From Candidatus Zhuqueibacterota bacterium (GTDB taxonomy: Bacteria > Zhuqueibacterota > Zhuqueibacteria > Residuimicrobiales > Krinioviventaceae), in contig JAFGJB010000061.1 of assembly GCA_016929295.1 (NCBI GenBank), positions 5,318 to 69,317 of the forward strand: 64,000 nt of DNA, read 5' to 3'. This document shows, one piece after another, positions 62,300 through 64,000 of the stretch (positions within the stretch are counted from its first letter, which is position 1; every line of letters begins with the position of its first letter). The notes beneath the pieces are model-generated. The model worked only from the letters and a program-made list of their open reading frames with translations, did not search any database and was not told where the DNA came from. The translations under genes and the position numbers were made by a program.

Positions 62300-62377
62300 T
62301 TTTTGCCTCCGTGACGATATAATTCAGGAATTCATCTATTTGACGAAACGATCATGAGAATGTTTACGATGCTGCTA

Positions 62378-64000
62378 TTAAAACGATTGAACAGTGTCCT
62401 TTATTTCTTCCTCCTCGCCGTCAAGAGCAGAGAGAATGATCTGGTGCGGCACAGCCCGCAGTGCGCCCCATTCCTGCCACTGGCCGGGCAACTGCTGCAA
62501 CTGTTCGATGACGGCCGGCAATTGCGCGGGCAGAATCCAGCGAAAATCGCTGATATTTTCGCCCTCATCTTGCGCCCGCGGCGCCCCATCGTCGACAGCT
62601 ATGTCAAATATATAGGAGAGAAACAGCGCCGTCTGCTCTTGACAGCGAAATTCATAGAGCAACAGCGCCAGCAACCGAGACGACACGGCGCGCAAACTTG
62701 TCTCTTCAGCCAGTTCTCGCTCGAGAGCGTCGATGGCGCTTTCATCCGCCCGAATGCCGCCCGTCGGGATCCGATAGGCATCCGGCGGATAGAATGACTT
62801 GGTGTGCAAGAGGATGGCGTCCTGGCGGTTGCGGATGAACAGCACGACCTCACCACGCCGCTGCGTTTCACCGTACAGGCGAACACGCCATTGTGCAAAG
62901 TGTTGCTCGCCAAGAGTGAGGCGGGTGTGATAAAATGTCGTCGGCCCGTATTTTTCGTGCAGATCAACTATCTCATCACGCAAGACATCCGCGATGCGCG
63001 CTCGGGCGCAAAAATCGTTCAACTCAAGCTCTTCGTGCATACCAGGCTCTCTTTCCGCCGCTTCAGCGGTCAGGTCGTTGTTCTTGACCCATTGGAATTT
63101 CACCCGCAGGGTTTTGGAATAATATTTTTCCAGCACATCATAGTCCACCCGATTCCCCCAGTTGTAAAATATTCTCGGATCGATATACGATTTCTGGCTG
63201 GTCACCAGGTTCCAGGTGCGATTTTCCATGGCGATCGCCATCTGTGCCCGCAGCCTGCCCAACGCGGCCTGCGCGCGCGCCTCGCGACCTGCGGCATTTT
63301 CGATGCGCTCTTTGAGAGCATCGATTTTTTGTGTGTATCTCACGGCCAATTTTTTCGCCTGGGCGCGATCGCGGCACCTTTTTTTCTTCTCGGCAAACTC
63401 TTTTTTGACGTTGTTCAGCGTCGATTTGTGCTCTTTGGCAAGCTCTGCAATTTTTTTGACATTTTCGGCCGCCGATTTTTCGCGCTCCTTATACCGTCTT
63501 TTGCGCTCACCCCAATTCTTCGGCGCCTGGCGGGTGTGGTTGCAGAGGATAGCCGCTTGCGTATTTGCCTGGGTCGCTGCCTCCCACTTTTTATACTCTG
63601 GATCGTGGCGCGATATAGCGGCGGCGTCCAGGTTGTCGCGCACGACCTGGCTGGCGTGATGCGTCCGGAACACCTTGGCGGTCAGCCCCGGCATGACTTG
63701 CGACAAAAAGGCATTGACGTTGCGGCTGCTGACATCCGGGAAGAGCTGCGGCCGGTTGTAGACCGAGTGTTTTTTTGCGCTGGCCGATGACGGCCTGGCA
63801 TTCTCCACGAGCTCTTGCAGATTTGCGATGACGCGTTGCGGCAGGGCAATTTTTTTATGCCACAGAACCGAGTCCTTGCCTAAAAAACGGAACTCGACGA
63901 CGTCCGTATGAATTTTGATATGCTCCGGCCTCAGGGTCGTTGCGCCGACGGTGTCGGCTTCGTCCGGATCCTTTTCGTCGCCGACACGCAGACAGAGCTC
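62378..64000 (-). CDS. top1: Eukaryote/archaeal-type DNA topoisomerase IB fused to a C-terminal NUDIX hydrolase (5' end beyond the window)
   Basis: Frame is open to the window edge: ELCLRVGDEKDPDEADTVGATTLRPEHI..FLGKDS..GLTAKVFRTHHAS..AAILCNH..[K/E/R-rich linker]..TSQKSYIDPRI..KYYSKTLRVKFQW; then Nudix box GGIRADESAIDALERELAEETSL. Confidence 0.92.
   Translation of the reverse strand, partial: ELCLRVGDEKDPDEADTVGATTLRPEHIKIHTDVVEFRFLGKDSVLWHKKIALPQRVIANLQELVENARPSSASAKKHSVYNRPQLFPDVSSRNVNAFLSQVMPGLTAKVFRTHHASQVVRDNLDAAAISRHDPEYKKWEAATQANTQAAILCNHTRQAPKNWGERKRRYKEREKSAAENVKKIAELAKEHKSTLNNVKKEFAEKKKRCRDRAQAKKLAVRYTQKIDALKERIENAAGREARAQAALGRLRAQMAIAMENRTWNLVTSQKSYIDPRIFYNWGNRVDYDVLEKYYSKTLRVKFQWVKNNDLTAEAAEREPGMHEELELNDFCARARIADVLRDEIVDLHEKYGPTTFYHTRLTLGEQHFAQWRVRLYGETQRRGEVVLFIRNRQDAILLHTKSFYPPDAYRIPTGGIRADESAIDALERELAEETSLRAVSSRLLALLLYEFRCQEQTALFLSYIFDIAVDDGAPRAQDEGENISDFRWILPAQLPAVIEQLQQLPGQWQEWGALRAVPHQIILSALDGEEEEIKDTVQSF

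Follow-up and report, generated by a model that had tools for sequence, protein, structure and literature searches.

In-frame fusion of a long-type topoisomerase IB with a NUDIX module in a single genome of Candidatus Zhuqueibacterota

The window analysed here is a stretch of 64,000 nucleotides (G000:C166:5318-69317) from the genome of an uncultured sediment bacterium, Candidatus Zhuqueibacterota bacterium, whose metagenome-type assembly (GCA_016929295.1, here G000) is 96% complete and consists of 367 contigs. At the end of the window, on the minus strand, an open reading frame (ORF) carries the domains of a type IB topoisomerase (TopIB) followed directly by a NUDIX domain. The frame shows no stop from window position 64000 down to its stop codon at 62378-62380 and extends past the window end; the whole ORF comprises 802 codons (L001:1879-4287), and its GTG start falls where homologues have their Met. 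All four Pfam domains exceeded their curated cut-offs, namely Topoisom_I_N (residues 4-208, 164 bits against a cut-off of 25), Topoisom_I (residues 213-447, 202 bits against 23.7), Topo_C_assoc (residues 511-570, 54 bits against 25.1) and NUDIX (residues 644-759, window 62510-62857, 52.5 bits against 21.1). A reading made earlier from the letters of the window without database searches (the sequence-only reading) had proposed an in-frame TopIB-NUDIX fusion with a tail of about 235 aa past the KFQW motif, and this is borne out by the open frame and its domains: the frame continues for 236 residues beyond KFQW (W566), while TopIB homologues without the fusion terminate 5-41 residues past the motif (41 of the 42 aligned, the remaining one lacking a literal motif). 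The tail is far beyond chance because it alone matches 545 proteins at E ≤ 0.001, with a best value of 5e-57. The ORF thus encodes one intact-looking chain of 802 residues and is a real in-frame fusion. Each half is the sole match of its own kind in the G000 assembly.

The C-terminal two thirds of the TopIB part (residues 263-567) occupy 63086-64000, the first 262 residues lying outside the window. The active-site residues R286 (63929-63931), K304 (63875-63877), R374 (63665-63667), H417 (63536-63538) and Y534 (63185-63187) are invariant in an alignment of 43 sequences and align with the GxxxLR, FLGKDS, KVFRT, CNH and SYxDPR motifs of the TOP1 of Caldiarchaeum subterraneum (6z01) and of human TOP1. 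This half retains 234 of the 238 columns that are conserved at ≥90% (98.3%, against a mean of 97.6% for the other sequences). The nearest solved structure is 6z01 (E 1.5e-129), followed by human TOP1 (E 1e-68), and the closest homologues, several of them named “candidate division KSB1 bacterium”, are 75-78% identical and have lengths of 577-592 aa, with a short acidic tail as their last part. By these sequence criteria the half belongs to the type IB topoisomerases and to their long (eukaryote/archaeal) form. Topoisomerases of this class relax positive and negative supercoils in an ATP-free manner via a 3'-phosphotyrosyl intermediate. The cap, catalytic core, coiled-coil linker and C-terminal domain of the Caldiarchaeum enzyme (6z01/6z03) and of human TOP1 (1k4t) are the same, as is their R-K-R-H-Y active site; unlike them, the protein described here is bacterial and continues past the usual C-terminus into a NUDIX module of 220 aa, which is absent from the solved TOP1s and from the best 120 TopIB homologues.

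The TopIB part passes into the NUDIX module through a junction and linker of 15 residues (568-582, window 63041-63085), composed of the native acidic TopIB tail KNNDLTAEAAE and then R-E-P-G. Within it, an AGA codon (R579, 63050-63052) stands at the position of the TGA stop of the TopIB gene in the sister genome of the same genus (G001), as judged by eye from an alignment over the conserved GCG GAA. The codons at this point read GAA AGA GAG in G000 and GAA TGA GAG in G001, and downstream of AGA (63052-63050) the G000 sequence continues in frame with GAG CCT GGT ATG. This ATG (M583, 63038-63040) opens the sequence MHEELEL and matches the start of the standalone NUDIX of relatives. The NUDIX module itself, delimited by Pfam, the family alignment and an AlphaFold model, spans residues 584-802 (62381-63037). 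The sequence-only reading had called for inspection of the junction for a missed stop, and none was found: in sequencing run X1, a Logan contig of 2820 bases with a word depth of 16.6 matches 62300-63692 throughout, without a difference or a gap, and no variant is listed over the 1393 bases where the two assemblies of X1 coincide. X1 is probably the source sample of G000, so that this agreement represents a second assembler on the same data rather than an independent sample. The comparison was with assembled contigs, in which rare variants would be invisible, and not with raw reads. Near-identical pieces of the gene were present in X2 and X3, from other studies, none of them spanning 62984-63154. 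In each of the two remaining frames a stop occurs shortly before the junction, and homology is unbroken in the fused frame on either side.

In the NUDIX module, about 55 aa of N-terminal helical extension precede the Nudix fold, and a long C-terminal helix follows it. The Nudix box of the module (G676-L698, 62693-62761), read from the translation and the family alignment, is G676-x5-E682-x7-R690-E691-x2-E694-E695-x-S697-L698, to be compared with the consensus GX5EX7REUXEEXGU; the box and its terminal replacement of Gly by Ser are as previously described from the letters. Gly occupies the position of Ser697 in at least 90% of 59 homologues, and E682, E691, E694 and E695 are invariant across 60 family sequences. 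Of 28 conserved columns, 26 are retained in this half, the two misses being the start Met and the Gly-to-Ser replacement in the box. Prediction of the tail structure, which the sequence-only reading had suggested, gave a Nudix fold with a pLDDT of 92.3 overall and 58-71 over the first 20 residues, a drop that fits a flexible linker at this end of the model. In a structure comparison (VIA-align), 654 of 1000 chains preselected with Foldseek reached Z ≥ 8, with a top value of 12.6, and the listed rows were Nudix proteins. Taken together, the sequence and the model identify the tail as a true Nudix-superfamily domain with its catalytic glutamates retained.

Nudix hydrolases cleave nucleoside diphosphates linked to another moiety, X. 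The comparisons of sequence and fold returned the generic Nudix fold and singled out no substrate class. The roles floated in the sequence-only reading, among them an action on damaged dNTPs, ADP-ribose or caps and a tuning of relaxation akin to that by poly-ADP-ribose, are therefore wholly speculative. All of the NCBIfam equivalog models scored far short of their cut-offs, the best being RppH (NF001937, 27.2 bits against 139), followed by MutT (20.1 against 148), NudC (13.9 against 158) and NudE (12.7 against 169). A PDB profile search with the NUDIX family gave generic MutT/Nudix and NUDT1-type chains only (E 2.6e-12 to 1e-8); Foldseek on the tail model placed RppH and NudC/NUDT12 at the top (E about 1e-7), with 3gz8 among its matches; and VIA-align gave a tie at Z 11-12.6 between MutT, NudI, NDP-sugar and ADP-ribose hydrolases, and NudC. 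Fold and box are thus alike with those of MutT, NudI, NUDT1/AtNUDX1, RppH, NudC/NUDT12 and the ADP-ribose/NDP-sugar hydrolases, with no subfamily preferred. What sets the NUDIX family of the fusion apart from these characterized enzymes is its N-terminal extension and a C-terminal motif. With low confidence, the module may be regarded as a house-cleaning (d)NTP-type pyrophosphohydrolase that is independent of the topoisomerase. A weak match to the PADLOC candidate family PDC-S07, with E values of 7e-4 (fusion) and 2.8e-6 (P0124, the best homologue), was taken as generic Nudix similarity and set aside.

The nearest relatives of the module are standalone proteins. With the tail as query (P0123, 238 aa), the best 150 of the 545 representatives at E ≤ 0.001 were 136-521 aa long and aligned from about tail residue 18-40 on; residue 3 of P0124 aligns to tail residue 18, and the G001 match begins at tail residue 20. 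P0124 and the 544 others (about 200-215 aa) share 41-48% identity with the fusion module in their best members and are labelled “NUDIX hydrolase” only, which is also the sole annotation of the NUDIX relatives in the ESM Atlas. Common to fusion and standalone family are the N-terminal helical extension, an RRGEVV strand, the stretch LLHTKxFYPxxxYRxPTGG followed by the box, and the C-terminal WxxWGxxRAxxH. The standalone proteins have their own start and a Gly at the end of the box, whereas the fusion module is a continuation of the TopIB frame and has Ser instead. Two of the NUDIX matches in related genomes, G003:C112:67200-67793 (TGA) and G030:C504:547-1116 (TAG), each contain one in-frame stop and may be broken copies or artefacts of match extension.

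The fused form was found once. NUDIX (PF00293) was present in 0 of the best 120 of 3010 TopIB homologues, and TopIB in none of the best 150 of the 545 NUDIX representatives. In a survey of 167 genomes of the phylum, with the NUDIX family called at E ≤ 1e-15, the family was held by 31 genomes, and the long frame occurred in one of these, G000 itself: the open frame around the NUDIX match measures 807 aa in G000 as opposed to 208-280 aa at 31 other places in 30 genomes. In relatives, the NUDIX is encoded on its own as a protein of some 210 aa and begins at the equivalent of MHEELEL. Metagenome loci with NUDIX relatives of 30-40% identity had TopIB within the fetched flanks in 0 of 18 cases. A word-based search with residues 583-802 returned no protein of 441-1404 aa that shares the tail, a result that rules out only close fused relatives, as the filter is insensitive and also missed NUDIX fusions of 474-521 aa known from the homology search. 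Among the eight longest NUDIX representatives, the partners were SurE (one), an Rce1-like protease (three) and a methyltransferase (one), the rest having a second NUDIX stretch, a weak TfoX_N match or nothing (one each), and TopIB was found in none. One further candidate, the 774-aa open frame of the TopIB in G035, was rejected as a C-terminal fusion, its extra length being an upstream low-complexity extension. On the sequences searched, the TopIB-NUDIX fusion therefore appears to be confined to G000 and is not a conserved architecture. The sequence-only reading had ranked the locus as a candidate for an undescribed system, which does not hold for a fused form in one genome alone whose NUDIX is standalone in relatives. 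Its remark that it knew of no described TopIB-NUDIX fusion agrees with the literature as far as titles and the opening parts of abstracts go.

The arrangement of the two genes was compared across the 30 relatives of G000 that hold the NUDIX family. As to whether orthologues are fused, adjacent or unlinked, a fused pair was found nowhere outside G000, an adjacent or near pair in 8 of the 30, and the two genes were not together in the remaining 22. G001 has the same gene order as G000 (ABC-F ATPase, lipoprotein, NUDIX, TopIB), and its TopIB stop and NUDIX start overlap as ATGA (4 nt, L003:2142-2145). The overlap is longer, 17 nt, in G009 and G016 (L018 near 922-938 and L010 near 1400-1420, respectively). 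Such ATGA and 17-nt overlaps are an arrangement typical of translational coupling, to judge from the gene layout. The five other linked relatives have a regulator gene between TopIB and NUDIX, the two genes being co-oriented within 1.5-4.4 kb: a gene for a 454-aa sigma-54-type response regulator intervenes in G003, G008 and G013, the order TopIB-regulator-NUDIX is split over two contig ends in G002, and the regulator is accompanied by two further genes in G007. All eight linked relatives belong to one family (f1 of the families f1-f11), and linkage was not seen in f2-f5. In five relatives TopIB and NUDIX lie 52-120 kb apart on one contig and in 14 on different contigs, where inspection of three of the 14 loci (G004, G014 and G020) showed no TopIB within 1.5 kb of NUDIX; in the last three of the 30 no TopIB match was found.

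The intervening regulator (L014:2365-3729, L015:2056-3429, L016:2694-4058, L017:937-2292 and L019/L005) is a protein of 451-457 aa in whose sequence a receiver domain, an AAA+ domain and a C-terminal Fis-type helix were recognized by eye. No orthologue-level match to it was found in G000, the best hit being 45% identical and on another contig, as compared with 65-82% identity among orthologues. The regulator orthologue seems to have been lost in G000, which would place the fusion after the loss of the intervening gene. Overall, the linkage pattern looks like inherited gene order with local deletions. As evidence that a functional module has been selected for it is not strong, though the tight overlaps leave possible room for one.

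We consider it likely that the 802-aa protein arose by a recent, lineage-confined stop-loss fusion of two adjacent co-transcribed genes and that its halves work as independent enzymes. The ancestor would have carried a long-type TopIB gene directly before a NUDIX gene of about 210 aa, as in G001. The TopIB stop would then have been lost (AGA for TGA) with the NUDIX frame in register; if the ancestral sequence was TGA-GAG-CCT-GGT-ATG, a single T-to-A change would have been sufficient. The product would be one 802-aa polypeptide in which a flexible, acidic linker, about 15 aa long, joins TopIB (1-567) to the NUDIX module (583-802). To judge from the conserved residues, the TopIB half would relax supercoils via a covalent Tyr534-DNA intermediate, using R286, K304, R374 and H417, and the NUDIX half would act as a Mg-dependent pyrophosphohydrolase via E691, E694 and E695, the two being presumably independent enzymes sharing one chain. 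The fusion would set co-expression at 1:1, and the kept in-frame ATG (M583) may still yield some free NUDIX. Creation of a new coupled activity, or functional coupling of the halves, is possible but unsupported. A complex prediction for TopIB 1-580 with NUDIX tail residues 19-238 scored 0.00 in two runs, and with no controls it is uninformative either way.

Several observations weigh against this account. The junction is spanned by contigs only and by one run, probably the source, which leaves some room for a minority or erroneous base. The junction sequence has diverged between G000 and G001, and G000 has an extra base relative to G001 in the interval from the aligned stop to the first NUDIX codons that are conserved, so that the one-step stop-loss history is inferred. 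The fusion is seen in DNA; the metatranscriptomes of the source study (two runs) contained almost none of the words of the gene, and X4, which covers only one conserved bin, is uninformative on expression. The Ser in the Nudix box, in place of a Gly shared by at least 90% of relatives, also counts here, as do the overlaps in three relatives and the co-orientation in five more, which could reflect real functional coupling.

One alternative is that the fusion is a Rosetta stone, in which TopIB and the NUDIX family cooperate in the group, for example with NUDIX clearing or sensing nucleotide-linked species at topoisomerase sites. The overlaps of 4-17 nt in G001, G009 and G016, which fit translational coupling, the co-orientation of the genes within 1.5-4.4 kb in G002, G003, G007, G008 and G013, and the presence of both halves as intact, single-copy units in the fused genome speak for it. 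As in operon fusions of the Rosetta-stone type, two overlapping genes in relatives correspond to one ORF here, the difference being that the fused form was found once. Informative Rosetta stones usually recur across lineages. Nudix domains are known in fusion to functional partners, for example in NrtR (compare 3gz8), which joins a Nudix domain to a winged helix. The linkage is, however, restricted to 8 of 30 relatives, all from f1, in which kin share gene order by descent; the regulator gene intervenes in five of these eight, with two more genes in G007; and elsewhere the genes are 52-120 kb apart (five relatives), on different contigs (14) or without a detectable TopIB (three), with TopIB at 0 of the 18 metagenome NUDIX loci. 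The NUDIX family is moreover fused elsewhere to the unrelated SurE, Rce1-like protease and methyltransferase. On this balance the Rosetta-stone reading seems unlikely. It is quite unlikely, too, that the two proteins form a true functional pair in the KSB1-like family, one that the overlapping genes of sister species would already couple in translation and in which NUDIX hydrolyses or senses a nucleotide-linked species where the topoisomerase acts, such as an ADP-ribose-like adduct or a nucleic-acid end capped with a nucleotide; if they did, the pair would be a bacterial counterpart to the nucleotide-dependent control of eukaryotic TOP1. The sequence-only reading had itself named a separately encoded NUDIX with its own start and without conserved linkage as a finding that would speak against the fusion as a system, and what was found comes largely to that: a separate NUDIX of about 210 aa from the MHEELEL equivalent, linked to TopIB in only 8 of 30 relatives, the eight all being from one family.

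The fused frame could also be an artefact, with two genes in reality and a minority allele, or an error made in sequencing or assembly, behind the base of the former stop or a nearby indel. The assembly is of metagenome type with 367 contigs, the difference between fused and split hinges on one base, and the junction is covered by no independent sample. The identity of two assemblies over 1393 bases at a word depth of 16.6, with no variant listed, and the continuity of TopIB-tail and NUDIX homology in the fused frame while the other frames are stopped just upstream nevertheless make such an error improbable. It would be more surprising still if a genuine read-through were neutral or harmful and one of the halves were in the course of being lost. 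The Gly-to-Ser replacement in the Nudix box and a Val at TopIB position 528, where 37 of 43 TopIBs have Gly, could be read as early decay. The conserved columns are, however, retained at 98.3% in the TopIB half (97.6% in the others) and at 26 of 28 in the NUDIX half, within the standalone range, the fused ORF has no internal stops or frameshifts, and position 528 is variable elsewhere too (T, N), so that decay is very improbable. A dN/dS estimate would suffer from saturation of synonymous sites, as the protein identity is 56%. Residue 528 (63203-63205, minus strand) itself belongs to the NL-G-TS motif and precedes the catalytic Tyr534 by six residues, and among the 43 aligned TopIBs three have Thr and two Asn at this position.

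With stop-loss fusion as the favoured account, the locus joins two well-known enzyme types in a single genome and defines no new system. It offers a clean natural case of an operon pair collapsing to one ORF, with a single stop-loss change as the probable cause. A weak hint also emerges for the NUDIX family, whose members measure about 210 aa (545 relatives at E ≤ 0.001): it may have a link to DNA topology within one bacterial family, and the fused protein is a ready-made tethered construct for testing this hint.

Beyond the fusion, and more notable than it, the bacterial TopIB found here is of the long eukaryote/archaeal type, the literature, in the parts available, treating bacterial TopIB as short. 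Dahmane et al. 2016 (PMC4824112) place prokaryotic long TopIB only in Thaumarchaeota, and two later papers (PMC8748870, 2022; PMC8185306, 2021) treat bacterial TopIB as the short form; as stated or implied in these papers, the long form would be restricted among prokaryotes to Thaumarchaeota and related archaea. Literature searches on KSB1 topoisomerase and on long-form bacterial Topo IB returned nothing relevant. The long bacterial TopIB may deserve a study of its own covering its phylogeny and the direction of transfer. Long-type TopIB was present in 43 of 60 relatives, in nearly all members of families f1-f6 and in none of f7-f11. The 3010 database proteins that match TopIB at E ≤ 0.001 include KSB1, Calditrichota and Chloroflexota among their top names.

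A different C-terminal extension past KFAW was seen in five other long bacterial TopIBs (P0099, P0069, P0077, P0086 and P0109) of 728-746 aa. The extension measures about 150-170 aa and is conserved among all five, which come from five database clusters; it has no Pfam match above threshold, the nearest being a weak GNAT-like match to Acetyltransf_6 (E 0.006, 17.2 bits against a cut-off of 22). C-terminal add-ons to bacterial TopIB thus exist in at least one other form, which recurs across the five clusters.

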